A stretch of 64,000 nt of DNA, taken from contig CAZMIB010000001.1 in the NCBI GenBank assembly GCA_964566245.1, positions 4,777 to 68,776 of the forward strand, read 5' to 3'. Below the pieces are notes generated by a model that was not told the origin of the DNA, did no database searches, and saw nothing but the letters and a program-made list of their open reading frames with translations. Position numbers and translations under genes: made by a program. Numbering within the stretch: position 1 is the stretch's first letter; every line of letters begins with the position of its first letter. This document shows positions 3,603 to 37,284 of this stretch, piece after piece. Source of the DNA: an uncultured Elusimicrobia bacterium (GTDB lineage Bacteria; Elusimicrobiota; Elusimicrobia; CAZMIB01).

Positions 3603-3727
3603 CAGGTCTAGGTCTCCCTGCCTAATGACCCAGGTCACCTTTCCCGTCGATGACATGGGTCCTAGGACCCCTGACCCTCCGGGAGCCTTCCTTTAATATA
3701 TGGGGGACCGGCAAGCGCCGGCTCTCC

Positions 3728-7200: not shown

Positions 7201-9185
7201 CCGCCTCCCGCCGTCTCGCGCTTCTCCTCTCGCTCGGCCTCGCGGCCGGAGCAAGAGCCGCGACGGAGAAGGAATCCCCTCCGGCCGTCGTTGTCGTTCC
7301 CTCGCCCCCGATGGGGGGAGAGGGTGGGGTGAGGGGGTTGGCGGCTCCCATGCCCTCACCCCTTCCCTCTCCCGCAAGCGGGCGAGGGAGTTCCTTGGGA
7401 AACATCTCCCAGCCTGCCGCGCATTTTCATCCTTTGCCTCCTGCGGTCGTGTCCGCGGTTCGCGTTATCACCGCCGCGAAGGCGGCTGTCGGCAATGCCG
7501 TCTCTCCGGCGGCGAAAGCCGCGGCGCTGGATCGCCTCTACTCCGGCGCGGCCGAGAGAGACGGCGTCGAAATTCTCGAGACCTCCGATGCCGCGGGGCC
7601 GGGTTTCGCGAGCCTCGCGGCGCGTCGATCCGAGCCTCCGGCGCGCGCGCCCGCGGCCTTCGATCCGGCGCCGGATATCGCCTTCCTCAAGCGCCTCAAG
7701 AAGATACGCGTCGTGTTCACTCATGCCCCGGGCCTCGGCCACCAGACGGCGACGTTGTCGATCGTCCGCCGGCTCAGGGATTTGGGCGTCAAGGCGCCGA
7801 TCGAGGCGATCTATCATGCCGTCAAAGGGGACCCGCAAGACCTCAGGCTCAAGCTGGCCCAGCTCATGCCCGAGTTCGATCCTCACGGCCCGGATGATCA
7901 GCGCGTGCCGTCGCTGAACATGACTTTGCGAAGCTGGGACAGCTTCAGGCGCGACAGGGACGACGTGGTGCTGGGGCTGACCGGAGGCGCGGACAAGTCC
8001 ATCGGCAATTTCGCCCGCCAATACCGGACAGAGATTTTCGCGAGGCTGAAACCTTACGGCTGGGGGGACTACGAGGACGAGCTTCACGTCCTCGAGAGCG
8101 GCAAGGTGAGCTTGCTGTCCTACATCGACGCGTCCTCGGGCCACGGGGCCTTTGTCTATCGGCCCGCCCAGGATCAGGTCGGCGCGGCGTATGTCGATGC
8201 TTTAAACCCGAATAATGTTCCGGCGGCGAAGGCCGCCGGCCTGAAGGTCCTGTTGCGCGAGCTGCCGAAGCGCGACTCCTTGGCCGCCTACGGCCTCCAC
8301 TTCTTCACGCCGCGCGCGCTTCACCGCCTGCTGCTCGGAGTGTCTCGCGCGTTGGACGATCGGCCCGGCTTGTTCAAGGGCCGGGGCGTGGTCGTGCCGC
8401 TGCTTCTCGATATCGACGACACGGTCGACGACATGCAGGATCAAATCAAAATCCCGCGCTTGATCTTGAACTCCGTCACCGATCCGCGGTGGCGCGCCGT
8501 CCTTGTCGCCAACGGCAAGCTGCGCCGCCGGCTGAAGATCGCCGACATACGCGACCCGGCCCTGTCGGAAAAGATCGAGGGAATGAAGCCCGACGACATC
8601 CTTGTCGTGAAGACGGGTGCCGTTCCGCCGCCGCTCTTCGAATGGTTCTTTTCGCGTAGCACCTTGCCGCCGACCTTGGAGGGCAAGAACGCGACCAACC
8701 TCGCGCATCTGCTGGGCATCCCCTTCCTCCCTATCAAGGAGGACGTCCTGGCGGGGCTCATCGATCGCGTTCCCGAGGGCGGGCCCAGGGAGGCGGTCGC
8801 CGCGCTGCTCCACGTCCGGACCGGCGTCATCGGCATGTCCATCTCCGCCGTGCTGCACCATGACGATTTCAGCTTCGCCTTCGAGAAGCTCGCCGACTAC
8901 ATGATCGCGGCGATGACGCCCGGCTCGCCGCTGCGGGAGATGTTCCGGAGCGCGCGCATCGCCCAGGACGATTACGCGCGCGACAAGCTGCTGCAGGCGG
9001 TCCGACAGGCGAGGCCGCGGATGGGCGCCCCGCCGAGTCCATGGCGCCGGTTCCTCGACGCCTGCCTCCGGTGGCTTCCCGGCCGCTCCAAGGAAAAGCC
9101 CGCGCCGCCGCCGGCTTCCCAGGGCCGGCAAGGGCCCACGGGACGCGAGCGGGTGAGCTTTTTCGGCCCCAAGGACCCTCTTTAA
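7197..9185 (+). CDS. Secreted protein, paralog 3 of 3. Motifs: KKIRVVFTHAPGLGHQTATLSIVRRLRDLG and KTGAVPPPLFEWFFSRSTLPPTLEGKNATNLAHLLGIPFLP.
   Basis: ORF 6837..9185 re-started at ATG 7197 (MTASRRLALLLSLGLAAGARAA) by paralog alignment. Start overlaps the paralog 2 stop. The linker carries two palindromic-element copies. Confidence 0.6.
   Translation: MTASRRLALLLSLGLAAGARAATEKESPPAVVVVPSPPMGGEGGVRGLAAPMPSPLPSPASGRGSSLGNISQPAAHFHPLPPAVVSAVRVITAAKAAVGNAVSPAAKAAALDRLYSGAAERDGVEILETSDAAGPGFASLAARRSEPPARAPAAFDPAPDIAFLKRLKKIRVVFTHAPGLGHQTATLSIVRRLRDLGVKAPIEAIYHAVKGDPQDLRLKLAQLMPEFDPHGPDDQRVPSLNMTLRSWDSFRRDRDDVVLGLTGGADKSIGNFARQYRTEIFARLKPYGWGDYEDELHVLESGKVSLLSYIDASSGHGAFVYRPAQDQVGAAYVDALNPNNVPAAKAAGLKVLLRELPKRDSLAAYGLHFFTPRALHRLLLGVSRALDDRPGLFKGRGVVVPLLLDIDDTVDDMQDQIKIPRLILNSVTDPRWRAVLVANGKLRRRLKIADIRDPALSEKIEGMKPDDILVVKTGAVPPPLFEWFFSRSTLPPTLEGKNATNLAHLLGIPFLPIKEDVLAGLIDRVPEGGPREAVAALLHVRTGVIGMSISAVLHHDDFSFAFEKLADYMIAAMTPGSPLREMFRSARIAQDDYARDKLLQAVRQARPRMGAPPSPWRRFLDACLRWLPGRSKEKPAPPPASQGRQGPTGRERVSFFGPKDPL
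7298..7338. repeat. GC-rich palindromic element copy (CCCTCGCCCCCG-ATGG-GGGGAGAGGGTGGGGTGAGGGGG) in frame in the paralog 3 linker
   Basis: Direct read. Confidence 0.7.
7352..7391. repeat. GC-rich palindromic element copy (GCCCTCACCCCTTCCCTCTCCCGCAAGCGGGCGAGGGAG, followed by TTCCTTGGGAA) in frame in the paralog 3 linker, where it encodes [15 protein letters not shown]
   Basis: Direct read. Same left arm and GCAAGC loop as the copies at 15673 and 33975. Confidence 0.75.
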
Positions 9186-10756: not shown

Positions 10757-11650
10757 TCACCGTGCCCTCTCCCCAAGGGAGAGGGGGAGGGCGAGGGGTT
10801 CTGATTTCATCCATCCTAATCCGACCACCGACCCCACCACCAGCGCCATCCCCACCCACGTCGCCGCGTTGGGTCGTTCATTCCAAAACATCCATCCGCC
10901 GGCCGCGGTCATCACGACCGAGAGCATCATCGCCGCCCCGCTTTTCGAGACCGGGCAAAGCTCGAAGCCGCGCGTCATCAGCCCTTGTCCCGCGGTCGCG
11001 CTCGTGGAGACGGCGAGCAGGACGGCCCAGCCGATCACGTCGGGCCGGCTCCATTGAACAACGGCGAAGGGCGCGGTCGCGGCCGCCCCGACGAGGTTGA
11101 AGTAGAACACGATCCTCCACGCGGGCTCGTCCTTCGTCAGGGCCCTGACCGTGGCGTACGAGACGCCGCCGATCACTCCGGCGCCGAGGCCGATCGCGTA
11201 GCCGACCCAGTCGCTGCCGCCCTGGGGGTGGACGACCAGGGCGACTCCGGTCAGGGCCGAGGCCAGCAGCCCCCCCGACGCGGGCGTGAGGCTCTCGCCG
11301 AGCGCGACGACGGCGATCACGGCCGCGAACAGCGGCGCGGTGTAGTTGAGCAGCACCGCGGTCCCGAGCGGGATGTGCGCGAGGGCCCAGAAGTAGCAGG
11401 CCATGCTCCCGATGCCCCACAGCCCCCGCGAGACGAGCAGCGGCCACCGCCGGCTGGCCGCGGAAAGGCCCTGCCGGCGCATGATCCGCAGCACCACCGG
11501 GAGCGCGAGCGCGTTGCGGAACAGGCATATCTCCGCGGTGCCGATAGAGCCCTTCAGGGCCTTGATCAGCATGCTCATGACCGCGAAGCACACGGCCGAC
11601 GCGGCGACGAGGCCGATGCCCCGCAGCTCGCTTTCCCGGGAGGGACGCAT
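10757..11650 (-). CDS. EamA/DMT-family transporter. Its C-terminal tail (...SEPLALPLSLGERAR) is encoded by a palindromic-element copy.
   Basis: Duplicated EamA-like TM pattern (NYTAPLFAAVIAVVALGE...). Stop at 10757. Confidence 0.7.
   Translation of the reverse strand: MRPSRESELRGIGLVAASAVCFAVMSMLIKALKGSIGTAEICLFRNALALPVVLRIMRRQGLSAASRRWPLLVSRGLWGIGSMACYFWALAHIPLGTAVLLNYTAPLFAAVIAVVALGESLTPASGGLLASALTGVALVVHPQGGSDWVGYAIGLGAGVIGGVSYATVRALTKDEPAWRIVFYFNLVGAAATAPFAVVQWSRPDVIGWAVLLAVSTSATAGQGLMTRGFELCPVSKSGAAMMLSVVMTAAGGWMFWNERPNAATWVGMALVVGSVVGLGWMKSEPLALPLSLGERAR
10764..10798. repeat. GC-rich palindromic element copy (GCCCTCTCCCCAAGGGAGAGGGGGAGGGCGAGGGG) overlapping the 3' coding end of the EamA gene
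   Basis: Direct read. Confidence 0.7.
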
Positions 11651-14563: not shown

Positions 14564-15451
14564 ATGATAGAGACACTTTCGGCGACGGAGCTTCCGGGCG
14601 TCACCAGGCTGCGCAGCGGCAAGGTGCGCGACGTCTTCGACCTCGGCGACAGGCTGCTGCTGGTCTCGACCGACCGCCTCTCGGCCTTCGACCACATCCT
14701 GCCGACGCCGATCCCGGACAAGGGGCGCGTGCTGAACGCGCTGTCGACCTTCTGGTTCAACTGGTCGCGCGAGCTGGCGCCCAATCATTTGATCACGACC
14801 GACGTCTCCAAGTACCCCATGCCGCTGCGCGAGCACCGCGCGACGCTGGAGGGGCGCTCGAGCCTCGTCCGCAAGGCCAAGCGCATCGACGTCGAGTGCG
14901 TCGTGCGCGGCTACCTCTCCGGCTCCGGCTGGAAGGACTACAAGGCGCACGGGATGATCTGCGGCCAGGCGCTTCCGGAGGGCTTGGTCGAGTCCCAGCG
15001 CCTGCCGATGCCGATCTTCACGCCGACGACGAAGGCCGATGAGGGCCACGACAAGCCGATCACGATGACCGAGGTCCAGTCGATGATCGGCCCGGAGCTC
15101 GCGCGGCGCGTGCAGGACATGAGCCTTTTGCTTTACTCCGCGGGGGCCGACTACGCCGAGAAGCGCGGCCTCATCCTCGCCGACACGAAGTTCGAGTTCG
15201 GCGTGCTGGACGGCGAGGTGATCGTGATCGACGAGATGCTCACGCCCGACTCGTCGCGCTTCTGGGACAAGGAGTCCTACGCGCCGGGCCGCTCGCAGAA
15301 CCAGTTCGACAAGCAGTACGTCCGCGACTATCTGGAGAAGATCGGCTGGAACAAGGAAGCCCCGGCCCCCGCGCTCCCGCCCGACGTCGTCGCCCAGACG
15401 ACCAAGCTTTACCGCGAGGCTTACCGGAGGCTGACCGGGCTGGAACTGTGA
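14564..15451 (+). CDS. purC: Phosphoribosylaminoimidazole-succinocarboxamide synthase (SAICAR synthetase)
   Basis: GKVRDVFDLGDRLLLVSTDRLSAFDHILPTPIPDKGRVLNALSTFWF is diagnostic. ATG 14564 follows GGGAG; the alternative start at 14549 overlaps guaA. Confidence 0.85.
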   Translation: MIETLSATELPGVTRLRSGKVRDVFDLGDRLLLVSTDRLSAFDHILPTPIPDKGRVLNALSTFWFNWSRELAPNHLITTDVSKYPMPLREHRATLEGRSSLVRKAKRIDVECVVRGYLSGSGWKDYKAHGMICGQALPEGLVESQRLPMPIFTPTTKADEGHDKPITMTEVQSMIGPELARRVQDMSLLLYSAGADYAEKRGLILADTKFEFGVLDGEVIVIDEMLTPDSSRFWDKESYAPGRSQNQFDKQYVRDYLEKIGWNKEAPAPALPPDVVAQTTKLYREAYRRLTGLEL

Positions 15452-16011
15452 ACCGAACGCCGGCGGCGCTGATCGAGGTCTCGACGCGAGAGGGCTTCAG
15501 CGACTCCGCCGCCTCCGGCGTTCTATCGCTGGCGAAAGAGCTGGGCGTCCCGGTCGAAAAAGCCGCGACCGTCGCGCTGTACCGGTTGGAAGGGGACCTG
15601 GATCGCGCGGCGCTGACGAAGCTGGCGTCCGAGCTGCTGACGGATCCGGTCACCGAAACATACGAAATTGTTCCCTCACCCCAACCTTCTCCCGCAAGCG
15701 GGCGAGGGAGCTCTTCAATAAGCAACTCTGTTCCATTAGAAAGGAACTCCCTCGCACCGCGTGAGCGGGGAGAGGGCCGGGGTGAGGGGCAGTCGTTGCC
15801 GTGCCTCACCCTCGACATCTGGCTCAAACCCCAAGTCGCCGACCCGGTCGCGCCATCCATTGAACGCGGCGCGAAGGACCTGGGCTTTTCCTTGAAGGCC
15901 CGCATCGGCCGCCGCTATCGCCTGTTCGGGCCGTTGAACGCCGAGGCCGCCAAGACCGTCGCCTGGAAGGCGCTGGCCAATCCCGTCGTCCACGAGTGCG
16001 AGGTCCGATGA
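15448..16011 (+). CDS. purS: PurS-like FGAM synthase subunit. It is unusually long (187 aa) and contains two PurS-like halves separated by a 117-bp palindromic-element insertion.
   Basis: The second half, CLTLDIWLKPQVADPVAPSIERGAKDLGFSLKARIGRRYRLF...ANPVVHECEV, is canonical PurS. The first half, ...LTDPVTETYEIV, is PurS-like. Position is between purC and purL. Confidence 0.65.
   Translation: MNRTPAALIEVSTREGFSDSAASGVLSLAKELGVPVEKAATVALYRLEGDLDRAALTKLASELLTDPVTETYEIVPSPQPSPASGRGSSSISNSVPLERNSLAPRERGEGRGEGQSLPCLTLDIWLKPQVADPVAPSIERGAKDLGFSLKARIGRRYRLFGPLNAEAAKTVAWKALANPVVHECEVR
15673..15789. repeat. Long (117 bp) version of the GC-rich palindromic element, with terminal inverted repeats CCCTCACCCC...GGGGTGAGGGG. 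Inserted in frame in purS, where it encodes [14 protein letters not shown]...RERGEGRGEG.
   Basis: Direct read: the left end CCCTCACCCCAACCTTCTCCCGCAAGCGGGCGAGGGAG and the right end GCGGGGAGAGGGCCGGGGTGAGGGG are inverted relative to each other. Confidence 0.75.
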
Positions 16012-18383
16012 GCTTCCTGCGCGCGTCCCTCGCCGAGCTTGAGACCCTCAGCCGTGAGCGGCAATGGTCGCTGGATCGGATCGAGCTGAAGGCGATCCAA
16101 GACCATTTCAAGAAGCTCAAGCGCGAGCCGACCGACGTCGAGCTGGAGACGTTGGCCCAGACCTGGTCCGAGCACTGCAAGCATAAGACGCTCACCAGCC
16201 CGCTCCTATATAAGGAAGGGGGCAAGGCCCGCCGCTTCAAGAACCTGCTCAAGGAGACGATTTTCGACGCGACCCGGCGGCTCAAGAAGCCATGGTGCCT
16301 GTCGGTGTTCAAGGATAACGCCGGCATCGTCGCCTTGGACAAGGACTGGGCCTTGGCCTTCAAGGTCGAGACCCACAACCACCCCTCGGCGATCGAGCCC
16401 TACGGCGGCGCGGCCACCGGCGCGGGCGGCGTGATACGCGACGTGCTCGGGGCCGGCCTCGGCGCCAAACCGGTGATGAACACCGACGTGTTCTGCGTCG
16501 GCCCGCTGGATCACGAGGGCGACCTGCCCGAGGGCTTCTTCCCGCCGCGCCGCACCTTGCGCCAGATCACGGCCGGCGTGCGCGACTACGGCAACCGCAT
16601 GGGCATACCGACCGCCAACGGCGGCCTGGCCTTCGACCCCGGCTTTCTGACGAACCCGCTCGTCTTCTGCGGCACGGTCGGCGTGATCCCGCGCAAGGCC
16701 GTGAAGAAAAGCGTACGCCCGGGCGACCTCATCGTCGCGGTCGGCGGCCGCACCGGCAGGGACGGCCTTCACGGCGCCACTTTTTCTTCCGCCGCGCTGG
16801 ATGATGCCGCGAGCGTCAGCGCGGTGCAGATCGGCAACGCGATCGAGGAGAAGAAATTCCTCGACGTTCTGCTGCAGGCGCGCGACAAAGGCCTGTACCG
16901 CGGCGTCACCGACTGCGGGGCCGGCGGCTTCTCATCCGCGATCGGCGAGCTCGGCGCGGAAATCGGCGCCGAGGTGCGCCTCGAGACGGCCCCGCTGAAG
17001 CACGAGGGGCTGAAGGCGTGGGAAATTTGGCTGTCCGAGTCCCAGGAGCGCATGGTCCTGGCCGTGCCCCCGTCCCGCTGGCCGGCGCTGAAGTCCCTGT
17101 TCGACGCCGAGGACGTGGAGGCCGTCGCGCTCGGGACCTTCAAGAAGACGGGGCGGCTGCAGGTCTACTTCAAGGACGAGCTGGTCGCCGATTTGTCGAT
17201 GAAGTTCCTGCATGAGGGACTGCCGAGGTATGAGCGAAGGGCGGAGTGGAGCGGACGAAAGAACCCTCACCCGCCCTCCGGGCACCCTCTCCCACAAGTG
17301 GGAGAGGGTGGGGGTGAGGGGCATGATTCCTCCAATCTAGGCTCCGCCCTCAAGGCCCTCCTCTCCCATCCCAACATCTGCTCCCGCGAGTGGATCGTCC
17401 GCCAGTATGATCATGAAGTCCAAGGTCAGACGATCGGCAAGCCGTTTCAGGGGCCGGGGCAGGGGCCGGGGGACGCGGCGGTGATTTGGCCGGTGACGAC
17501 CACGGGCGCCAAGCGCATTCCCGCGTTCGCGGTCTCGAACGGGATCACGATCGGGGCCGCCGATCCGTATAAAGGCGCCGTCGCCGCGGTCGACGAGGCG
17601 CTGCGCAATCTCGCCGCGGCCGGGGCCGACGTCCGGCGCGCGGCCTTGCTCGACAATTTCTGCTGGGGCGATCCGAAGGACCCGCGCGAGCTGGGCGGCC
17701 TCGTCCGCGCGGCGCTCGGCTGCCGCGACGCGGCGCTCGGTTACGGCGCGCCGTTCATCTCGGGCAAGGACAGCCTCAACAATACCTACGCCGACGCCTC
17801 CGGCCGCCGTGCCTCGATCCCCGGGACCTTGCTGATCTCGGCGCTGGCCCCGCTGCCCGATCCGAAGCGCCGCATGACGATGGATTTGAAAGGCTCCGGT
17901 CACGCGGCGTTTCTCGTGGGCCCGGCGGCCGAGGGCTTCGTCTTTTCGCGAGAGGTTCTGGCCGCGCTGTTCAAGGCGATCCAAAGCGGCTTCGTCCTCG
18001 CCTGCCACGACCTTTCGGAGGGCGGGCTCGCGGTCGCCGCGGCCGAGATGGCCTTCGCGGGGAACGTCGGCCTGGAGCTGTCGCTGAACGGCTTCACCTC
18101 CTCGAGCGACGCCGAGGCGCTGTTCGGCGAGGGCCTTACGCGCTTCTTGATCGAGGCCGCCCCCGGGCGCGAGCGCAAGCTGGCGGCCTTGCTGCACGAC
18201 CATCTTTTCATCGAGGTCGGCCGGACGATCGCCGAGCCCGTCCTGCGCGCGCGGCATCAGAGCCGCGTCGTCCTTCAGGAGAACCTCGGCGAGCTGCGCG
18301 AGGCCTGGTCCACGGCCTTGGCCCGCGAGCTGGACGGCCGGCGCTCCCAAGCGCCGGCGCCGGCCCGGGAGGTGGCGGCATGA
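16008..18383 (+). CDS. purL: Phosphoribosylformylglycinamidine synthase subunit PurL (small PurL). It carries an in-frame 58-bp palindromic-element insertion.
   Basis: ...ETHNHPSAIEPYGGAATGAGGVIRDV...; ATGA overlap with the purS stop. Confidence 0.9.
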   Translation: MSFLRASLAELETLSRERQWSLDRIELKAIQDHFKKLKREPTDVELETLAQTWSEHCKHKTLTSPLLYKEGGKARRFKNLLKETIFDATRRLKKPWCLSVFKDNAGIVALDKDWALAFKVETHNHPSAIEPYGGAATGAGGVIRDVLGAGLGAKPVMNTDVFCVGPLDHEGDLPEGFFPPRRTLRQITAGVRDYGNRMGIPTANGGLAFDPGFLTNPLVFCGTVGVIPRKAVKKSVRPGDLIVAVGGRTGRDGLHGATFSSAALDDAASVSAVQIGNAIEEKKFLDVLLQARDKGLYRGVTDCGAGGFSSAIGELGAEIGAEVRLETAPLKHEGLKAWEIWLSESQERMVLAVPPSRWPALKSLFDAEDVEAVALGTFKKTGRLQVYFKDELVADLSMKFLHEGLPRYERRAEWSGRKNPHPPSGHPLPQVGEGGGEGHDSSNLGSALKALLSHPNICSREWIVRQYDHEVQGQTIGKPFQGPGQGPGDAAVIWPVTTTGAKRIPAFAVSNGITIGAADPYKGAVAAVDEALRNLAAAGADVRRAALLDNFCWGDPKDPRELGGLVRAALGCRDAALGYGAPFISGKDSLNNTYADASGRRASIPGTLLISALAPLPDPKRRMTMDLKGSGHAAFLVGPAAEGFVFSREVLAALFKAIQSGFVLACHDLSEGGLAVAAAEMAFAGNVGLELSLNGFTSSSDAEALFGEGLTRFLIEAAPGRERKLAALLHDHLFIEVGRTIAEPVLRARHQSRVVLQENLGELREAWSTALARELDGRRSQAPAPAREVAA
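17264..17321. repeat. GC-rich palindromic element copy (CCCTCACCCGCCCTCCGGGCACCCTCTCCCACAAGTGGGAGAGGGTGGGGGTGAGGGG) inserted in frame in purL, where it encodes [21 protein letters not shown]
   Basis: Direct read. Confidence 0.8.
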
Positions 18384-23217: not shown

Positions 23218-24068
23218 AGGGCATGACTCGGGTTCTCCCTCGCCCCGCGTGCGGGGAGAGGGTGGGGGTGAGGGGATCGAGGATCGCCGTCATACTTGCC
23301 GTTCTCTGCGCCGCCTCGGCCTACGCCTCCACCCCAACCGAAACTCACTTTCACGAGTCCGCCCTTCTATCCTCCGTGGTCCGTTACGCTCAAGCCCATC
23401 CCGCCGCCACGCCCGCCGACATCGCCCGCAAGGCCGACGAACTGTTGCCCCGCGAAGGCCTAAACTTTAAAGCCGCGCTCGACGATTGGAAGACCGACGT
23501 CGAAGCCACCTTGCACAAGGATGCCGCCCTCAAGCGGAAGCTGGGCAAATATCGTCTGGAACCGCTGTCGGCCCAAGCCAGCACGACCTCGTGCGGGACC
23601 GCTTATTACCTGCCGTTCACCAACAATCCCGCCGAGATCGCCGGCATAAGCCTGGCCGACCGGACCGCGTACCTGAAAACGCGCGGCGCCTTCCGCTTCG
23701 ACAGCGTCGCCTTGCTGGAGCGCGGCCGCGCGCGGCCGGTGCGTCGCTGGCCGCTGCCCGATGAGAGCGAGGTTCCCGCGGGGATATCGAAGGATGGCCG
23801 GACCCTCTTTCTGGAGTATAAGCTCGCCTCGGCCGAGACCGGTTGGACGCCGATCAAGGCCGGCGGCGAGGACCACATGCTCCTGGCGATCGGCCCGGAA
23901 AGTCTCATTTTCGCCGACAACTACGCCGAGCTGTCGAAGCAAAGTTGGGACACCCTCGAGGAACTACCCTGGAAGGTCCCGGCCCCCGAAGGCGACTACG
24001 AATCCTTCGGCGTGCTGAAGGCGTGGGGAAAAGAATTCTATTTCGGCTTCGAGCCTATATGTCGATAA
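23214..24068 (+). CDS. Hypothetical secreted protein. The 5' end overlaps a palindromic-element copy; the true start may be GTG 23268, which gives the signal peptide VRGSRIAVILAVLCAASAYAS.
   Basis: ORF track; signal-peptide-like N-terminus; no family recognised. Confidence 0.45.
   Translation: MKGMTRVLPRPACGERVGVRGSRIAVILAVLCAASAYASTPTETHFHESALLSSVVRYAQAHPAATPADIARKADELLPREGLNFKAALDDWKTDVEATLHKDAALKRKLGKYRLEPLSAQASTTSCGTAYYLPFTNNPAEIAGISLADRTAYLKTRGAFRFDSVALLERGRARPVRRWPLPDESEVPAGISKDGRTLFLEYKLASAETGWTPIKAGGEDHMLLAIGPESLIFADNYAELSKQSWDTLEELPWKVPAPEGDYESFGVLKAWGKEFYFGFEPICR
23230..23276. repeat. GC-rich palindromic element, deletion variant (GGTTCTCCCTCGCCCCGCGTGCGGGGAGAGGGTGGGGGTGAGGGG)
   Basis: Matches the internal hairpin plus right terminal repeat of the 173-bp copy at 31150. 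Confidence 0.7.
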
Positions 24069-27072: not shown

Positions 27073-27770
27073 CGTATCCGATCGTCGCGTTGGACGTCCG
27101 CACCTTGCCCGAGGCGCAGAAGCTTTTGACCGAGCTCCAGGACACGATCCATTTCTACAAGGTCGGCTTGAGGCTGTTCACCGCCGAGGGCGCGCGCGCG
27201 GTGAGACTCGTCGACCAGATGGGCGGAAAAGTGTTTCTCGATCTCAAGCTGCACGACATACCGCAGACCGTCGCTCACGCGGTGGAGGAGGCGGGGCGTC
27301 TCGGCGTGCACTCGGTCTCGCTGCACCTGTCGGGCGGCCGCGAGATGCTGCGCGCGGCCGTCCGCGCCCAGCCGCGGCCGAAGCTGTGGGGCGTCTCGGT
27401 GCTGACGAGCCTCGATCAGGACGATTTGAAGGTCCGGGCCGGTGCGAGGCCGGCTGGGGTGTGTTGTGACGGCGCGGGCCTGGCGGCCGCCGAGGGGCTG
27501 GCGCGCGAGGATTGCTCTGGGGAGGACCTGCCCATCGGCTCCAAGCTCGAGCCGCGGCCGGCGTGCATCGTGCCCGGCGTGCGCGGCGCGGCTGACAAGG
27601 TCGGCGATCAGAAGCGCGTCGTCACCCCGGCCGAGGCGGCGAAGCGCGGGGCGGACTATATCGTCGTCGGCCGGCCGATCACGCAGGCCGCGGATCCGAA
27701 GGCGGCCGCCCAGCGCATCATCAAGGAATTGGAGGAAGCACAGGACGTATCCTATGACCCACGCGACTGA
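27069..27770 (+). CDS. pyrF: Orotidine-5'-phosphate decarboxylase
   Basis: IVALDV...FYKVGL...FLDLKLHDIPQTV. Confidence 0.85.
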   Translation: MTYPIVALDVRTLPEAQKLLTELQDTIHFYKVGLRLFTAEGARAVRLVDQMGGKVFLDLKLHDIPQTVAHAVEEAGRLGVHSVSLHLSGGREMLRAAVRAQPRPKLWGVSVLTSLDQDDLKVRAGARPAGVCCDGAGLAAAEGLAREDCSGEDLPIGSKLEPRPACIVPGVRGAADKVGDQKRVVTPAEAAKRGADYIVVGRPITQAADPKAAAQRIIKELEEAQDVSYDPRD

Positions 27771-28407
27771 AGATCTCATCAAGTGGCTGCGCGACGCCGG
27801 CGCTCTTCTGGAGGGGCATTTCCTGCTGTCCTCCGGGATGCACAGCCGGCAATACGTGCAGTGCGCCCAGCTTTTCCAGTACCCGCACATGACCGAGAAG
27901 GTGGCCAAGATGCTGGCCAAGAAGGCCCCCGCGGCGCAGCTCGTCGTCTCGCCGGCGATGGGCGGCCTGTTCCTCGGCCACGAGGTCGCCAAGGCGCTCG
28001 ACCTGCGGCACATCTTTTGCGAGCGAGAGGACGGCAAGATGGTCCTGCGCCGCGGCTTCAAGCTCAAGGCCGGCGAAAAAATCGTGATCGTCGAGGACGT
28101 GTTCACGACCGGCAAGTCGACGCGCGAGGTGATGACGGTCGTCGAGCGCGCCGGCGGCAAGGTGGTCGGGGCGCTGTCCTTGATCAACCGCTCGGTGGGC
28201 GACCTGGGTTTCGGCGTTCCGACCGAAAGCCTCGCCGAGTTGCCGATCGTCAACTACGAGCCCGATGAGTGCACGCTCTGCAAGCGCGGCGTCCCGGTGA
28301 TAAAGCCAGGCTCGCGGCCGAAGCCGGAAGCCGAGAAAAAGGCCGAGGCCGAAAAAAAAGCGGAGCCGAAAGCGGCGCTGAAGCTCCAGCGGGAGTTTTA
28401 CGGATAG
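27754..28407 (+). CDS. pyrE: Orotate phosphoribosyltransferase with an unusual Lys/Ala/Glu-rich C-terminal tail (KPEAEKKAEAEKKAEPKAALK)
   Basis: GHFLLSSGMHSRQYVQC...IVIVEDVFTTGKST PRTase motif. Confidence 0.85.
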   Translation: MTHATEDLIKWLRDAGALLEGHFLLSSGMHSRQYVQCAQLFQYPHMTEKVAKMLAKKAPAAQLVVSPAMGGLFLGHEVAKALDLRHIFCEREDGKMVLRRGFKLKAGEKIVIVEDVFTTGKSTREVMTVVERAGGKVVGALSLINRSVGDLGFGVPTESLAELPIVNYEPDECTLCKRGVPVIKPGSRPKPEAEKKAEAEKKAEPKAALKLQREFYG

Positions 28408-28410
28408 CTC

Positions 28411-29382
28411 ATGCCACTGACCTATAAGCAGTCCGGCGTCGACGTCGGCCTCGCCGACAAGCTCGTCGAGCATTTGCGGAAGCGCTCGCCGGTCATCGGC
28501 GGTTTCTCGGGGCTGCATCCGTTTCGTCTCGGCAGCCGCGAGATTTTCCTCGCGGCCTCGACCGACGGGGTCGGTACCAAGCTTAAGCTCGCGTTCCTGT
28601 TGGACAAGCACGACACGGTCGGGGTCGACCTGGTCGCGATGTGCGTCAACGACCTCGTCACCTGCGGGGCGACGCCGCTGTTCTTCCTGGACTACTACGC
28701 CACCGCGAAGCTCGACCTAAAGCGCTCGAAGAAGCTGCTGGACGGCGTGCTCGAGGGGTGCAGGCTCGGGCGCATGACGCTTTTGGGCGGCGAGACCGCC
28801 GAGATGCCGGGCTTCTATAAGGAAAAGGAGTACGACCTGGCCGGCTTCGCGGTGGGCTGGGTCGAGAAGAACGACGTGCTCGACGGCCGTTCCGCGCGCG
28901 AGGGCGACCTGCTGGCCGCCTTGCCCTCCTCGGGCCTGCACTCGAACGGCTTCTCCTTGGTGCGCAAGGCCTTCAGCGACGCCAAGCTCAAGCGTCAGCC
29001 GGACCTGCTGACACCCACGCGCATCTACGTCGACGAGGCCCGCACCTTGCGCGCGGCCTTGGGCGGGCGCTTGAAGGCCATGGCGCACATCACCGGCGAG
29101 GGTTTGGAAGGGAACGTGCCGCGCGTGTTGCCGAAGGGGCTGCGCGCGGTCGTCGAGCGCGGGCGCTGGGACGTGCCCGAAATTTTTCGCAGGGTGCAAC
29201 ACGCCGGCAAGGTGCCCGAGGCCGACATGTGGTCGACGTTCAACATGGGGACGGGCCTCGTGGCGGTCATTTCGCCGGAGGCGCTGACGCGCGCCAAGCG
29301 CGCCGCGCCGGATTTGTTCGTGATCGGGCGCATCGAGAAGGGTCGAACGGGCTTCGCGTTCGAGGGGGACTCGCGTGGCTAA
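28411..29382 (+). CDS. purM: Phosphoribosylformylglycinamidine cyclo-ligase (AIR synthetase)
   Basis: LTYKQSGVDV...TDGVGTKLKLA.... Confidence 0.9.
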   Translation: MPLTYKQSGVDVGLADKLVEHLRKRSPVIGGFSGLHPFRLGSREIFLAASTDGVGTKLKLAFLLDKHDTVGVDLVAMCVNDLVTCGATPLFFLDYYATAKLDLKRSKKLLDGVLEGCRLGRMTLLGGETAEMPGFYKEKEYDLAGFAVGWVEKNDVLDGRSAREGDLLAALPSSGLHSNGFSLVRKAFSDAKLKRQPDLLTPTRIYVDEARTLRAALGGRLKAMAHITGEGLEGNVPRVLPKGLRAVVERGRWDVPEIFRRVQHAGKVPEADMWSTFNMGTGLVAVISPEALTRAKRAAPDLFVIGRIEKGRTGFAFEGDSRG

Positions 29383-31729
29383 GCTGGCCGTCCTCGCGTC
29401 CGGCGAGGGAACGAACTTCCAAGCGATCGTGGACGCCGCGCGCTCCGGCTGGCTGAGCGCGCAGGTGGCCGTGCTGATCTCAAGCCGCAAGGACGCGGGC
29501 GCGCTGCGCCGCGCGCGCGAGGCGGGCATCGAGACCACGGTCCTGGAGCCGACGGCCTTCCCCACGCCCGAGGCTTACGGCGAGGCTCTCGCGAAGGCCT
29601 GCCGTGACAAAGGTGTCGATCTGATCTGCCTCGCGGGCTATCTGCCCAAACTGCCCGACGCGGTGCTCAAGGCCTTCCCGGGAAAGGTGCTGAACATCCA
29701 TCCGGGGCTTTTGCCCGCCTTCGGCGGCAAGGGCATGTACGGGCGCAAGGTCCACGAGGCCGTGATCGCGGCGGGGGCCAAGGTCACCGGCTGCACGGTG
29801 CACATCGTCGACGAGGAATACGATCACGGGCCGATCGTGCTTCAAGCCACGGTCCCGGTCGCGGACGGCGACACGCCGGAGACGCTGGCCGCGCGCGTCC
29901 TCGAGGTCGAGCACCACCTTTATCCGAAAGCCGTGAAGCTGTTCTGCGAGGGGCGGGTTCACCTTGAAGGCCGGATGGTCCGCATAAAACCCGAGACAGC
30001 CAAGTCCGGCCAGGTGCGCCGCGCGCTGATCTCGGTCTCGGACAAGACCGGCGTCATCGAGCTGGCGCGCGAGCTGGCACGGCTGGGCGTCGAGCTGGTT
30101 TCGACCGGCGGCACCGCGAAGGCTCTCGCCGCGGCGGGACTGTACGTGCGCCCGCTCGGCACGATGACCCACTGGCCCGAGATGTTCGGGGGGCGCGTGA
30201 AAACCCTTCACCCCGCGGTGCACGGCGGCATCCTGTTTCGGCGCGACGATCCGGAGCACGCGCGTGAGGCGGCCCAGCACATGATCGAGCCGATCGATCT
30301 GGTGGTGGTGAACCTGTACCCGTTCGCGGAGGCCGCGAAGAAGCACCGCGCTTTCGAGCCCGAGCTGATCGAGGAGATCGACATCGGCGGGCCGACCCTC
30401 GTTCGCGGCACGGCGAAGAACTGCGACTCGGTGGCCATCGTCACGAGCCCGGCCGACTATGGGGCCGTCGTCGAGGAGCTGAAGTCGAAGGGCGAGCTGT
30501 CGCTGGAGACGCGAAGGAATCTGGCGAGGAAGGCGTTTCAGTCGACCGCCGCGTACGACGCCGAGATCGCGCGGGCCCTCTCCACGGCCGCCGATGGGGC
30601 GCGCTTCCCGGCCGCGTTGGACCTGCGCCTCGACAAGGTGCAGGACCTGCGCTACGGCGAGAACCCGCATCAAGCCGGCGCGCTCTACCGTGTCAGCGGA
30701 TCGGAACGGCCGTTCGAGCAGCTCCAGGGAAAGGAGCTCTCGTATAACAATCTGCTCGATGCCGAGGGGGCTTGGGGACTCGTCCAAGAGTTGGACGGCC
30801 CGGCCGCGGTGATCTTCAAGCACGTCACCCCCTGCGGCGCCGGCGCCGGACGGACCATCGTCGAGGCCTACCGCCGCGCCTGGGAGGCCGACGGCGTCTG
30901 CGCCTTCGGCGGCATCCTCGCGCTGAACCGCCCGCTCGATGCCGAGGTGGCGAAGGCGATCGGGGAGTTTTTCCTAGAGGTCATCGTCGCGCCGGAATTC
31001 ACCCCCGAGGCGCGCGAGTTGCTGCAACGAAAGAAGAACCTGCGCCTCCTGGAGCGTCGCCCCGGCGAGGCCGCTGCGCTGGAGTACCGCGTGGTGGGGA
31101 CGGAGGTGCTGGTTCAAGAACCGGATAAGGCCTTGTGGGCTGCGCAGAACCCCTCACCCCCACCCTCTCCCACAAGTGGGAGAGGGAGCTCCTTGGGAGT
31201 TCTCCGGCACCAGGTCTCCCTCGCCCCGCGTCAGCGGGGACGGGGGGAGCCCGGTGGGCTCCCCCACGAGCCTGGCCGTGGAGGGGGGCGGCTGGGAAAG
31301 GATGAGGGTGGGGGTGAGGGGGCGGATCTCTGGAAAGTCGTCACGCGCCGCGCGCCCACGCCGGAGGAATCCGAAGCCCTTCGCTTCGCCTGGCCGGTCT
31401 CGAAATACACCCGCTCCAACGCGATCGTGGTCGCGACGTCCGTTCAGACGCTCGGCATCGGCGCCGGGCAGATGTCGCGCGTCGACGCGGTGCAGGTCGC
31501 GGCGATGAAGCTCGCGCAGTACGCGCAGCGCAAGCCGATCCCGGCGACTCTCGCCGCGGCCTCGGATGCCTTCTTCCCGTTCCGCGACGGCATCGACGAA
31601 TTGGCTAAACTGAACGTGACGGCGATCGCCCAACCCGGCGGCTCGGTGCGCGACGAGGAAACGATCAAGGCCGCCGACGAGCGCGGCATGGCGATGGTAT
31701 TCACGGGGATGCGGCATTTCAGGCATTGA
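29375..31729 (+). CDS. purH: Fused PurN-PurH protein (784 aa): GAR formyltransferase (PurN-like, ~aa 1-200) joined to bifunctional AICAR formyltransferase/IMP cyclohydrolase. Carries an in-frame 173-bp palindromic-element insertion.
   Basis: The N-terminus [16 protein letters not shown]...[12 protein letters not shown]...[16 protein letters not shown] is PurN. ...[11 protein letters not shown]...LYPF... is the PurH MGS-like domain. There is no stop between them. The start is GTG 29375. Confidence 0.8.
31150..31322. repeat. Full-length (~173 bp) GC-rich palindromic/MITE-like element. Its terminal inverted repeats are CCCTCACCCCCACCCTC ... GAGGGTGGGGGTGAGGG, and it has internal hairpins (CCCTCTCCC-ACAAGT-GGGAGAGGG; GGGAGCCC-GGT-GGGCTCCC). 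Inserted in frame in purH, where it encodes about 58 extra residues.
   Basis: Direct read of both ends and the internal perfect hairpins. The translation [14 protein letters not shown]...GGGEGADLW interrupts an otherwise PurH-like sequence. Confidence 0.8.
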
Positions 31730-31775
31730 GTATTATTTATTGATAAGTAAAGTGTCTGAAAATCGAAGGGAATTC

Positions 31776-32318
31776 ATGGAAAATAAAAGAGCGACGCGCT
31801 GGTTGGTGCCTCACGGCGAAACGCTAGAGGAGCGCATCTACCTCGTTCGTGGACGCAGGGTCATGCTCAGCACGGATTTGGCCGAGCTCTATGGAGTAAA
31901 GCCCAAGGCGCTCGTGCAGGCCGTAAAGAGGAACACGGCGCGGTTCCCCGCGGATTTCATGTTCCGCTTGACGGCCAAGGAGGCCGGTTCTTTAAGGTCA
32001 CAAATTGTGACCTTAAAGAGGGGTGCGCATCGTAAGTATCCGCCGTATGCTTTCACCGAGCAGGGTGTCGCTATGCTCTCGGGCGTATTGCGCAGTCGGA
32101 GGGCTGTCCAAGTCAATGTAGCTATCATGCGGACATTCGTCAAACTTCGAGAGACATTGTCATTGCATAAGCAGCTTGCAGTGAGGCTTGATGACTTGGA
32201 AAGAAAAATAATGGAGCATGACGGCCAAATTCAAAGCGTTTTCGATGCGATCAGACAGCTTATGGAGCCGCCGGAGAAGGATAGTTTGAAGATTGGTTTT
32301 CGGCTTGAGGGGCGGTAG
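31776..32318 (+). CDS. ORF6N-domain DNA-binding protein, encoded in a low-GC insertion
   Basis: RVMLSTDLAELYGVKPKALVQAVKRNTARFPADFMFRLTAKE...YAFTEQGVAMLSGVL matches the ORF6N/KilA-N-type domain. Local GC is clearly lower than in the flanks. Confidence 0.6.
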   Translation: MENKRATRWLVPHGETLEERIYLVRGRRVMLSTDLAELYGVKPKALVQAVKRNTARFPADFMFRLTAKEAGSLRSQIVTLKRGAHRKYPPYAFTEQGVAMLSGVLRSRRAVQVNVAIMRTFVKLRETLSLHKQLAVRLDDLERKIMEHDGQIQSVFDAIRQLMEPPEKDSLKIGFRLEGR

Positions 32319-32360
32319 CATGGATTTGCAGGGCAGCCGACCTTGGATCGGAGACGATTT

Positions 32361-33518
32361 ATGAACAGGCTCGCGGCGTTGGCGATGGAGGATGGGACGG
32401 TTCTTTTCGGCGAGGCTTGCGGGGCCGAGGGGGAACGCACCGGGGAGCTTGTTTTTAATACGTCGCTGACCGGCTATCAAGAGGTGCTGACCGATCCTTC
32501 CTATAAAGGGCAGATCGTCGTGATGACGTATCCGCATATCGGCAACTATGGCGTGACGCGGGAGGATATGGAGGCGCCTAATCCCGCGGCCGAGGGGCTC
32601 GTGGTGCGGGAGAGCAATCGAGTTTACTCCAACTGGCAGGCTGTCGAAGGATTAGAGTCATTCCTCAAGAGGTACAGCCTCGTCGCGATTTCCGATGTCG
32701 ATACGCGGCATCTCGCGACCTTGCTGCGGCAGAAGGGGGCGATGCGGGCCGTCGTGTCCACGTTGGACATGGACAAGCGGCGGCTCGTGAAGAAGGCGCG
32801 CGAGGCGCCTTCGATGGCGGGGCTCGATCTGACGGGGCGCGTCACGTGCCGGAAGACGTATGTTTACTCCGAGGGGCCCGTGGCAGGTCCGAGGCCCGCT
32901 ACTCCGGCGTTGCCGACGCCGCATGTGGTCGCGGTCGATTACGGCGTGAAGCTGGGAATCCTCAGGCAGCTCGCGGCGATCGGGGCGCGCGTCACCGTCG
33001 TGCCGGCGCATGCGACCGCGGATGAGATCAAGGCGCTCAATCCGGATGGACTTTTGCTCTCCAACGGGCCGGGCGATCCGGAGCCGGTGAGGCACGCGAT
33101 CGAGACGATCAAGCGGACTTTGGAGTGGGAGCTGCCGACCTTCGGCATCTGCCTGGGCCACCAACTGCTCGGGCTGGCGCTCGGCGGCAGGACGTACAAG
33201 CTCAAGTTCGGCCATCGCGGGGCGAACCATCCGGTGAAGGACCTCGACACCGGCAAGATCGAGATCTCGACGCACAACCACGGCTTCGCGGTCGATGAGC
33301 GGAAATTGCCGCGCGAGCTGAAGCCGACCTACGTCAATTTGAACGACAAGACGCTGGAAGGAATGGCGCACACCCAGCTTCCGGTGTTCTCGGTGCAGTT
33401 CCACCCGGAGGCCTCGGGCGGGCCGCACGACAGCCGGCACCTCTTCATGAGGTTCCGCGACATGATGCTCAAGCGCATGGGCGCCCTGGCGGGCGCGGGA
33501 GAGACCCTTGGCCGATAA
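32361..33518 (+). CDS. carA: Carbamoyl-phosphate synthase small (glutaminase) subunit
   Basis: LVFNTSLTGYQEVLTDPSYKGQIVVMTYPHIGNYG...GICLGHQLL... Confidence 0.9.
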   Translation: MNRLAALAMEDGTVLFGEACGAEGERTGELVFNTSLTGYQEVLTDPSYKGQIVVMTYPHIGNYGVTREDMEAPNPAAEGLVVRESNRVYSNWQAVEGLESFLKRYSLVAISDVDTRHLATLLRQKGAMRAVVSTLDMDKRRLVKKAREAPSMAGLDLTGRVTCRKTYVYSEGPVAGPRPATPALPTPHVVAVDYGVKLGILRQLAAIGARVTVVPAHATADEIKALNPDGLLLSNGPGDPEPVRHAIETIKRTLEWELPTFGICLGHQLLGLALGGRTYKLKFGHRGANHPVKDLDTGKIEISTHNHGFAVDERKLPRELKPTYVNLNDKTLEGMAHTQLPVFSVQFHPEASGGPHDSRHLFMRFRDMMLKRMGALAGAGETLGR

Positions 33519-33972
33519 GAACGACAAGACCCGCAGGCTCATCGTCACCGACATCGAGCGCCAATGGCTGTCCAGGGTGCTCGAGATCAATTTCCAGGGG
33601 CCCTCGGCCGACGATTTGAAGGCGCTGCTGCCCTCGCTGACGCGCGAGAGCTTCGCGAAGGGCGAGGCCATCGTTCAGGAGGGCTCGGACGGGACCGACG
33701 TGTTCTTCCTTCATAAGGGCCTGGCGCTGGTGACGAAGAAGAAGTTCATCGGCGCCCGCAACGTCGTGAAGCTCAAGCCGGGAGAGGTGTTCGGCGAGGT
33801 GGGATCCTTGGTTCACGCCGAGCGCTCGGCCAGCGTCGTCGCGGACGACGCCGTCGAGGTGCTGCGCGTCCCGTGCAAGGAGTTCCAGGCCTTGCTGGAG
33901 AAGCATCCGCAGCTCGAGGCTTACTTTCAGACGGTGGCGCGGCAGAGGATGCAGGAGTTGGCGGGGGGGTAG
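33508..33972 (+). CDS. Stand-alone cyclic nucleotide-binding (CAP effector-like) domain protein
   Basis: FAKGEAIVQEGSDGTDVFFLHKGLALVTKK...GEVFGEVGSLVHAERSASVVA is the cNMP-binding fold signature (FGE...RSA). Confidence 0.65.
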   Translation: MADKNDKTRRLIVTDIERQWLSRVLEINFQGPSADDLKALLPSLTRESFAKGEAIVQEGSDGTDVFFLHKGLALVTKKKFIGARNVVKLKPGEVFGEVGSLVHAERSASVVADDAVEVLRVPCKEFQALLEKHPQLEAYFQTVARQRMQELAGG

Positions 33973-33974
33973 GC

Positions 33975-34027
33975 ACCCTCACCCCCACCCTCTCCCGCAA
34001 GCGGGAGAGGGCGAGGGGGAGGGGGAG
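33975..34027. repeat. GC-rich palindromic element copy (CACCCTCACCCCCACCCTCTCCCGCAAGCGGGAGAGGGCGAGGGGGAGGGGGAG), intergenic upstream of carB
   Basis: Direct read. Confidence 0.8.
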
Positions 34028-34038
34028 TCTGGGGAGAT

Positions 34039-37284
<3,246 letters not shown>

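Follow-up and report, generated by a model that had tools for sequence, protein, structure and literature searches.

We consider the purNH gene found in a 64,000-nucleotide (64-kb) stretch of DNA from an uncultured Elusimicrobia bacterium, called the window below, to which all positions refer. This gene is a single open reading frame (ORF) that joins PurN, the glycinamide ribonucleotide (GAR) transformylase, to PurH, the bifunctional enzyme with an inosine monophosphate (IMP) cyclohydrolase (IMPCH) domain and a 5-aminoimidazole-4-carboxamide ribonucleotide (AICAR) transformylase (AICARFT) domain. According to the reading that we consider likely, it encodes a trifunctional enzyme of a kind typical for its phylum, which carries an in-frame, nearly neutral inverted pair of BoxC/PIT/TM repeats in a variable loop of the AICARFT domain. 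As an in-frame palindromic repeat, it is a fresh example of a known phenomenon, from a known family and in an unusual coding context.

Results

The inserted repeat pair

The insertion in the AICARFT domain has a net length of 171 bp, or 57 codons, and is codon-aligned. With 171 bp removed, the frame is regained together with a loop of 7 aa (the junction without the insert reads AAQN/ADLW), while the removal of 172 bp produces a frameshift; the length of 173 bp and 58 residues given by an earlier, sequence-only reading of this DNA has to be revised. The element is bounded by perfect 18-nt terminal inverted repeats (31150-31167 and 31304-31321). This terminal 18-mer recurs seven times in the window where none is expected, and together with the internal units it matches eight other window loci, which confirms the earlier suggestion that the extra residues are derived from a dispersed palindromic repeat.

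The repeat unit can be written as CCCTC(T/G)CCC, a loop, GGGAGAGGG, two nucleotides of any kind (NN), and GGGGTGAGGG. Using a three-block regular expression with at most one mismatch per block and a first loop of up to 10 nt, nine complete TM units are found in the window versus none in 50 shuffles; two of the units (7299 and 23237) have first loops of 8 nt, outside the published range of 1-6 nt. The left arm of the purNH insertion matches the published TMECO consensus (Table 1 of PMC4666352), and the right arm matches 15747-15771 and 23234-23257 at 92%. A G-rich segment of 63 nt within the right arm (31241-31303) has no other copy in the window. Judged by these sequence matches, the insertion consists of two BoxC/PIT/TM (TMECO) intrastrand-triplex repeats in inverted orientation.

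The BoxC/PIT/TM family is present in more than 260 genomes from many phyla (Holder et al. 2015, NAR 43:10126, PMC4666352). According to this work, some copies form inverted pairs, a single strand adopts a triplex in vitro (not demonstrated in vivo), the repeats have no promoter or terminator activity and no link to transposons or mobile elements, and they are linked to local genomic instability. The three-block unit, in single or inverted-pair copies, is common to the published family and the window element. The 23 copies of E. coli MG1655, however, are all intergenic (PMC4666352), whereas the pair in the window lies in frame inside an enzyme.

As RNA, the 171-bp element is predicted to adopt a multibranch fold whose closing helix is the 18-bp terminal stem (-125.7 kcal/mol, z = -6.1 versus shuffles), in a calculation that models hairpins only and not triplexes. 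Such a strong structure with a closing stem is what one might expect if the insert were removed before the protein matures, as an intron, as an intein or by translational bypass. We consider the chance of this to be practically negligible, since the whole 64 kb contains no match to an Rfam family (tRNA, riboswitch, sRNA or introns) at the gathering score, and since the repeat family is ordinary intergenic DNA elsewhere. An intein was considered and rejected: the inserted peptide has 57 aa of low complexity and, by eye, neither a Cys/Ser/Thr start nor a His-Asn end, while inteins have at least about 130 aa with splice-junction residues. Terminator- or promoter-like sites were also not found in the insert. 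The simplest reading is that the insert is transcribed and translated. The Rfam search is blank for the whole window despite its many purine and pyrimidine genes, which are often controlled by riboswitches.

Three of the six frames of the element contain a stop, and two of the three forward frames are open. The peptide read in the frame used is made up of 16 Gly, 9 Pro, 7 Arg and 6 Ser among its 57 residues (28%, 16%, 12% and 11%) and contains the motifs GRG, RGRG and GRGGGR. The G+C contents at codon positions 1, 2 and 3 are 0.81, 0.69 and 0.69 in the insert, compared to 0.72, 0.46 and 0.88 upstream and 0.65, 0.50 and 0.87 downstream. The insert lacks the host codon signature and does not have the look of host coding sequence. 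Its composition and its perfect terminal repeats suggest that the insertion is apparently recent.

The insertion site lies between two conserved motifs, EPD(R/K)..W and WKVVT.R.PT. The loop that holds it differs from homolog to homolog in both sequence and length, usually with some 4-7 residues, and its counterpart in M. tuberculosis PurH (PDB accession code: 3ZZM) is the loop at approximately residues 388-398. The insertion occurs in only one of 122 fused homologs, the window protein itself. The closest homolog (P0002) has an unrelated Ala/Pro-rich addition of 19 aa at this site. In the AlphaFold2 model (93 sequences), the mean predicted local distance difference test (pLDDT) score is 87.5, and residues 593-649 are the only segment that scores below 50, a coil between the strand 577-581 and the helix 663-677. 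From this model, the insert probably persists as a floppy, disordered surface loop of 57 residues, and the enzyme most likely stays active despite it.

One may ask instead whether the insertion has destroyed the AICARFT activity or the dimerisation of the enzyme, with purine salvage or another purH serving in its place. A disordered insertion of 57 residues is large for a catalytic domain, this one ends 32 residues before the catalytic N682, and the linkage of TM repeats to local genomic instability (PMC4666352) would fit a damaged gene. Nevertheless, the 2.35-kb frame is otherwise intact and keeps all the residues that are invariant in 93 homologs, the site is already variable in length among homologs, and the third-position G+C content (GC3) of the flanks is still 0.87-0.88. 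The neighbouring purM, purS, purL, purQ, carA and carB are likewise intact, and no purN or purH paralog is present within the 64-kb window. With these observations, we regard inactivation as unlikely.

The fused gene

We turn to the protein that hosts the repeat, whose features are collected in Table 1. The gene starts with GTG and overlaps the purM stop by 8 nt (GTGGCTAA). The closest homolog likewise begins with MAKLAV, and its locus has the same 8-nt overlap with purM; the exact purNH protein is present in a public collection as P0001. In the PurN part, Formyl_trans_N (PF00551) is matched at residues 3-187, and TIGR00639 scores 202.4 bits versus a cut-off of 150.1 over profile positions 1-190 of 192. 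In the PurH part, MGS (PF02142) is matched at residues 227-341 and AICARFT_IMPCHas (PF01808) at residues 347-588 (profile positions 2-247 of 311) plus a second stretch, with 651.4 bits for PRK00881 (cut-off 402) and 587.6 bits for TIGR00355 (cut-off 528). These Pfam and NCBIfam domains uphold the sequence-only reading in that a complete PurN runs on into a complete bifunctional PurH with no intervening stop. The same reading had PurH split by the palindromic element. The element is indeed there, and the PurH profile match falls into two stretches with residues 593-649 between them, so the AICARFT domain is interrupted; the protein is not split, as the frame is continuous.

The residues for catalysis and substrate binding that were checked are all present, and their columns are invariant in 93 homologs. 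They are N107 and H109 (within NIHP) and D150 (within YDHGP) of PurN; SVSDK (S220-K224), Y315 (the Tyr of NLYPF), D336 (the Asp of IDIGG) and K348 (the Lys of AKN) of IMPCH, the last of which lies just past the IMP cyclohydrolase part, at the start of the N-terminal part of AICARFT; and K482, H483 and N682 of AICARFT. We take the three PurN residues to be the counterparts of N106, H108 and D144 of E. coli, and the KH pair and the Asn of the SN motif of PurH presumably correspond to K266, H267 and N431 of ATIC.

Table 1. Features of purNH and of the repeat pair inserted in it (window positions).
Feature	Position	Strand	Basis or remark
purNH, one 784-aa ORF (PurN + IMP cyclohydrolase + AICAR transformylase)	29375..31729	+	stop codon 31727-31729
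PurN (GAR transformylase) domain, residues 1-205	29375..29989	+	Pfam PF00551, TIGR00639, invariant columns
Fusion linker KPETAKS, residues 206-212	29990..30010	+	alignment; counterpart of the short stretch between purN and purH in unfused relatives
IMP cyclohydrolase (MGS-like) domain of PurH, residues 213-346	30011..30412	+	Pfam PF02142, PDB 3ZZM and 4EHI
AICAR transformylase domain, N-terminal part, residues 347-592	30413..31150	+	Pfam PF01808
In-frame insertion, residues 593-649 (ending GGGEG), assigned as inverted pair of BoxC/PIT/TM units	31151..31321	+	absent from 121 other fused homologs
Left arm, complete three-block TM unit (CCCTCTCCC-ACTTGT-GGGAGAGGG-TG-GGGGTGAGGG)	31151..31186	-	regular-expression test; TMECO consensus match
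Spacer (31 nt) between arms, local hairpin GGGAGCTCC/GGGAGTTCTCC	31187..31217	.	folding
Right arm, TM unit (CCCTCGCCCC...GCGGGGA, then GAGGG-TG-GGGGTGAGGGG) split by 63-nt segment	31218..31321	+	sequence comparison
AICAR transformylase domain, C-terminal part, residues 650-784	31322..31726	+	second PurH stretch; conserved RHFRH end

The purM-purNH-carA neighbourhood of the window is also found in the two relatives' loci that were read (L001 and L082), and the longer order pyrE-purM-purNH-(ORF6N)-carA-carB (window 27442-37284) is common to the window and L082. From pyrE to carB this is a mixed purine/pyrimidine cluster that is conserved in the lineage. In L082 the purM-purNH cluster continues upstream with pyrB, pyrC, pyrD and pyrF. 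Between purNH and carA of the window lies a gene with an ORF6N domain (31740-32318, 110 bits), with a G+C content of 0.52 versus 0.69 for purNH. The same slot is empty in L001, where the two genes are 17 nt apart, and holds an unrelated ORF of 210 aa in L082; since its contents differ among the three, the gap between purNH and carA is a variable insertion slot.

Distribution and origin of the fusion

In a homolog search that covered 5.8 billion proteins, the PF00551+PF02142+PF01808 architecture is shared by at least 120 clusters, whose proteins have 714-750 aa and 49-75% identity. The closest among the matches listed, P0002, is 75% identical and comes from a forest-soil metagenome; its linker, KPETAKPGQVK, shares the pattern KPETAK(S/P)GQV with that of the window. 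Because the fusion is conserved across homologs to this extent, with a nearly identical linker in P0002, a sequencing error at the junction, the scenario named in the sequence-only reading as fatal to the fusion, is excluded. The fused proteins of Elusimicrobiota and Chloroflexota metagenome-assembled genomes (MAGs; e.g., MBI5493732.1, HAH07341.1 and TPW21706.1) are 50-75% identical to the window protein and have the same domain order and the same short linker. The fused proteins of these two phyla, at 714-750 aa, differ from the window protein in lacking its 57-residue insertion.

To follow the fusion across genomes, species-representative genomes were scanned with tblastn and the frames were then read. 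Among these genomes, only L002 and L004 (Elusimicrobiales/Elusimicrobiaceae) and seven loci from Chloroflexota have single-ORF fusions that end in RHFRH; one more Chloroflexota locus, L013, reads through with an aberrant end. The search for the fusion in relatives that the sequence-only reading had proposed thus yields single ORFs in genomes of both phyla. A wider distribution over about ten phyla, which the tblastn matches covering query residues 1-344 at first seem to offer, was rejected because most of these matches are adjacent separate genes with a stop about 200 aa in, and the claim is narrowed to Elusimicrobiota and Chloroflexota. Judged by the frames read, the fusion is typical of Elusimicrobiota and is also present in some Chloroflexota. 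The best named matches of the window CarB are Elusimicrobia MAGs (63-65% identity), which points to a divergent, uncultured lineage of Elusimicrobiota as the source of the window. The distribution is patchy; within Anaerolineae, for example, L012 and L022 are fused and L031 and L065 are unfused.

In unfused relatives, purN and purH are adjacent (-13 to +60 nt) and often in the same frame, so the loss of a single stop codon would suffice for fusion. We infer that the fusion arose in this way: purN lost its stop, and the short spacer turned into a linker of 7-12 residues.

The fusion is already in databases and typical of its phylum, and hence is not new. Public records name the fused proteins only "bifunctional PurH", and our literature search turned up no account of PurN fused to a full-length PurH in bacteria, the haloarchaeal case being the only one that it yielded. 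In haloarchaea, PurN is fused to PurH1, which has AICARFT only (Brown et al. 2011, Biol Direct 6:63, PMC3261824). Both fusions place the two purine transformylases that depend on 10-formyl-tetrahydrofolate (10-formyl-THF) on one chain. They differ in that the haloarchaeal protein has only the AICARFT half, with IMP cyclohydrolase supplied by PurO, while the window protein has the full bifunctional PurH, including the MGS/IMPCH domain at residues 213-346, and belongs to a bacterial host.

The channelling of both formyl transfers, which was proposed in the sequence-only reading, finds no support. The formylations of GAR and AICAR are steps 3 and 9 of the purine pathway; these steps are not consecutive and no intermediate passes between them. 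As 10-formyl-THF is their only common ground, only co-expression and co-localisation can be deduced. The fusion can ensure equal expression and co-location at the shared 10-formyl-THF pool, and its patchy distribution points to a mild advantage that recurs and that stems from co-expression, not from channelling.

Other copies of the repeat

Of the nine TM loci in the window, six overlap ORFs and three are intergenic. The ORFs with an in-frame repeat are purH, purS, purL, the ORFs 5377 and 6837, and the C-terminus of an EamA-family gene. The PurS-like ORF (15448-16011), which has two PurS domains, carries an inverted TM pair of 117 bp (15673-15789) in its interdomain linker. This insertion is exactly 39 codons, codon-aligned, with a peptide that ends in GEGRGEG, and is absent from the three tandem-PurS homologs that were found (153-170 aa). 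PurL (15996-18383) has an in-frame TM unit at 17264-17321, within the variable linker that joins its two AIRS/AIRS_C halves. TM-derived peptide is also present in the N-terminal low-complexity regions of two of three tandem paralogs (5590-5628 and 7298-7400).

Several further observations concern these loci. The three tandem paralogous ORFs (window 3650-9185; about 576, 607 and more than 650 aa) have N-termini that resemble signal peptides and no Pfam match. The last 14 or so residues and the stop of the EamA-family transporter (10757-11650, minus strand) appear to come from a degenerate TM unit at 10765-10800 (...EPLALPLSLGERAR and stop). All nine loci fall within 1-34100 and none within 34100-64000, the G+C contents of these two parts being 0.673 and 0.620.

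The copies in purH, purS and ORF 6837 share one element frame, PSP.PSP.SGRGSS. Together with the Gly-, Pro-, Arg- and Ser-rich composition and the GRG, RGRG and GRGGGR motifs, this could be taken to mean that the loop has been exapted as a Gly/Arg-rich (GRG/RGG-like) module for, e.g., enzyme clustering, regulated proteolysis or nucleic-acid binding. We find this highly improbable, because the loop occurs in only one of 122 homologs, shows no amelioration of codon usage and has a sequence that is dictated by the repeat. The frame shared by three copies was set aside as evidence of function, since such a comparison is underpowered and two of the three forward frames are open in any case.

Among relatives, no TM repeat is found in 81 loci (L001-L081), and copies are present in two others. 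L082, which holds the gene for P0005 (from forest soil and about 60% identical), has a purNH with a single in-frame TM unit (L082:7200-7250) in a different loop, the linker between IMPCH and AICARFT, where it encodes APHPALAPSGRGE; this is the only hairpin of its kind, with a 9-bp stem, in the 11.8-kb locus. The carB gene of an Elusimicrobia MAG (GCA_016205045.1; L203) contains an in-frame palindromic TM-like unit (L203:1958-2015), CCTCACCC-TA-CCCTCTCCCCC-AAAAA-GGGGGAGAGG-AAAAA-GGTGAGGGGG, which makes the linker that separates the halves of CarB 13 residues longer than in the window CarB.

The exact unit, with its 28 specified bases, occurs in at least 120 metagenomic contigs (L083-L202) with G+C contents of 0.44-0.73, and inverted pairs 100-170 bp apart are present in several of them (L104, L112, L141 and L157). 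For a short repeat, the TM unit is strikingly conserved across very different genomes. When copies are scored as genic by a heuristic based on codon-position G+C, four of the nine window loci are genic versus three of the 111 metagenomic copies that can be evaluated (Fisher p = 5e-4), with a GC3-based measure that is crude and conservative and misses the copies in ORF 6837 and at the EamA C-terminus. From these proportions, the TM repeat is normally intergenic and the genome of the window appears unusually permissive.

Discussion

The proposed course of events can be stated as follows. We infer that the 171-bp inverted BoxC/PIT/TM pair entered purNH, apparently recently, codon-aligned and free of stops in the frame used. 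It would be read as a Gly/Pro/Arg/Ser-rich, disordered loop of 57 residues, with the enzyme keeping its activity, and it would persist by near-neutrality and not by function. Selection would purge the copies that are out of frame, contain stops or disrupt a domain core, so that those in loops and linkers remain.

Several points weigh against this reading. All relatives in the collections are MAGs or metagenome contigs. No empty site was recovered: the left flank, in codon-degenerate form, has no matches in the metagenome contigs scanned, and no protein is closer than the 75% identical relative. A disordered loop of 57 residues might impair dimerisation, and it is possible that a second, uninterrupted purH exists outside the 64-kb window, which itself contains none. 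Finally, since the sequence is apparently metagenome-derived, the interior of a multi-copy repeat could be mis-assembled, and the 63-nt inner segment of the right arm is without a second copy in the window.

The last of these leads to the concern that assembly wrongly placed the repeat, or some of its interior, in purH and that the real gene has a short loop. In addition to the single-copy inner segment, it is in keeping with this that the repeat occupies at least nine loci in 34 kb and that P0001 is alone in its cluster, on one 87-kb contig. An artefact would need, however, to be of exact 3n length, without a stop and aligned to the codons. Both flanks belong to the same gene in the same frame, collinear with 121 homologs; two further pur genes of the window carry the repeat; and independent assemblies contain the same kind of in-frame repeat in the purNH of L082 and the carB of L203. 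We therefore judge an assembly artefact to be quite unlikely, and we retain the reading of a translated, nearly neutral repeat pair.

How does this element compare with other repeat systems? The Rickettsia palindromic elements, of 100-170 bp, are inserted without a frame change in housekeeping genes that are unrelated to one another (Ogata et al. 2000, Science 290:347, as cited in PMC10969869) and, in the account given by PMC10969869, are translated as an extra peptide at positions compatible with the fold. They share with the window repeat the presence of an in-frame palindromic repeat in several unrelated ORFs, and the survival of copies in loops and linkers matches these elements as PMC10969869 describes them. 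Their host is an obligate intracellular alphaproteobacterium, whereas the host here is a GC-rich, apparently free-living Elusimicrobiota lineage; the window unit is a triplex-type motif with a variable copy architecture and shows no sign of relationship to them. By analogy, the window repeat would work like the Rickettsia elements without being a member of that group, a comparison of behaviour in which no Rickettsia element sequence was compared.

Intragenic ERIC (enterobacterial repetitive intergenic consensus) and other small mobile sequences of enterobacteria also form in-frame additions to ORFs (Delihas 2007, as cited in PMC10969869). As summarised there, these too are normally intergenic palindromic repeats found occasionally inside ORFs in frame, although they are a different repeat family with sporadic cases, whereas the window has several enzymes of one pathway affected within 16 kb. 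With MITEs (miniature transposable elements that have inverted repeats) the window element shares perfect terminal inverted repeats, of 18 nt. Neither the purH copy nor the purS copy shows a visible target-site duplication, with no empty site for comparison, and the 171-bp excision does not need such a duplication. The inversion of two units, seen in the purH, purS and 7298-7400 copies and in the metagenomic contigs, is a trait shared with REPINs.

A broader proposal is that, in this lineage of Elusimicrobiota, BoxC/TM acts as a "protein-coding palindrome" which enters the loops and linkers of essential enzymes time and again. The enzyme cases behind it are purS, purL and purNH within 16 kb of the window, and purNH and carB in two other Elusimicrobia. 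We offer this tentatively, as our judgement leans somewhat against it. If true, it would be a second independent instance of a behaviour considered peculiar to Rickettsia, in a GC-rich and apparently free-living host and with a repeat family whose E. coli copies are strictly intergenic; it would imply either that selection against insertions is unusually relaxed or that the repeat spreads by a mechanism with a preference for transcribed DNA; and the copies would constitute a natural map of the insertion-tolerant sites in purine enzymes.

For the fusion, the understanding of the purine pathway itself is unchanged by our findings. They do indicate that a fusion of the two folate-dependent transformylases arose in bacteria as well as in haloarchaea. 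Because the fused proteins are named "bifunctional PurH", pathway reconstructions of Elusimicrobiota and Chloroflexota could wrongly call purN missing. For the repeat family, a sequence described as strictly intergenic and linked to instability can ride in frame in essential enzymes, a behaviour like that of the Rickettsia palindromic elements in another phylum. The positions in PurH, PurL, PurS and CarB that tolerate 13-57 extra residues may be useful for protein engineering and the insertion of tags.

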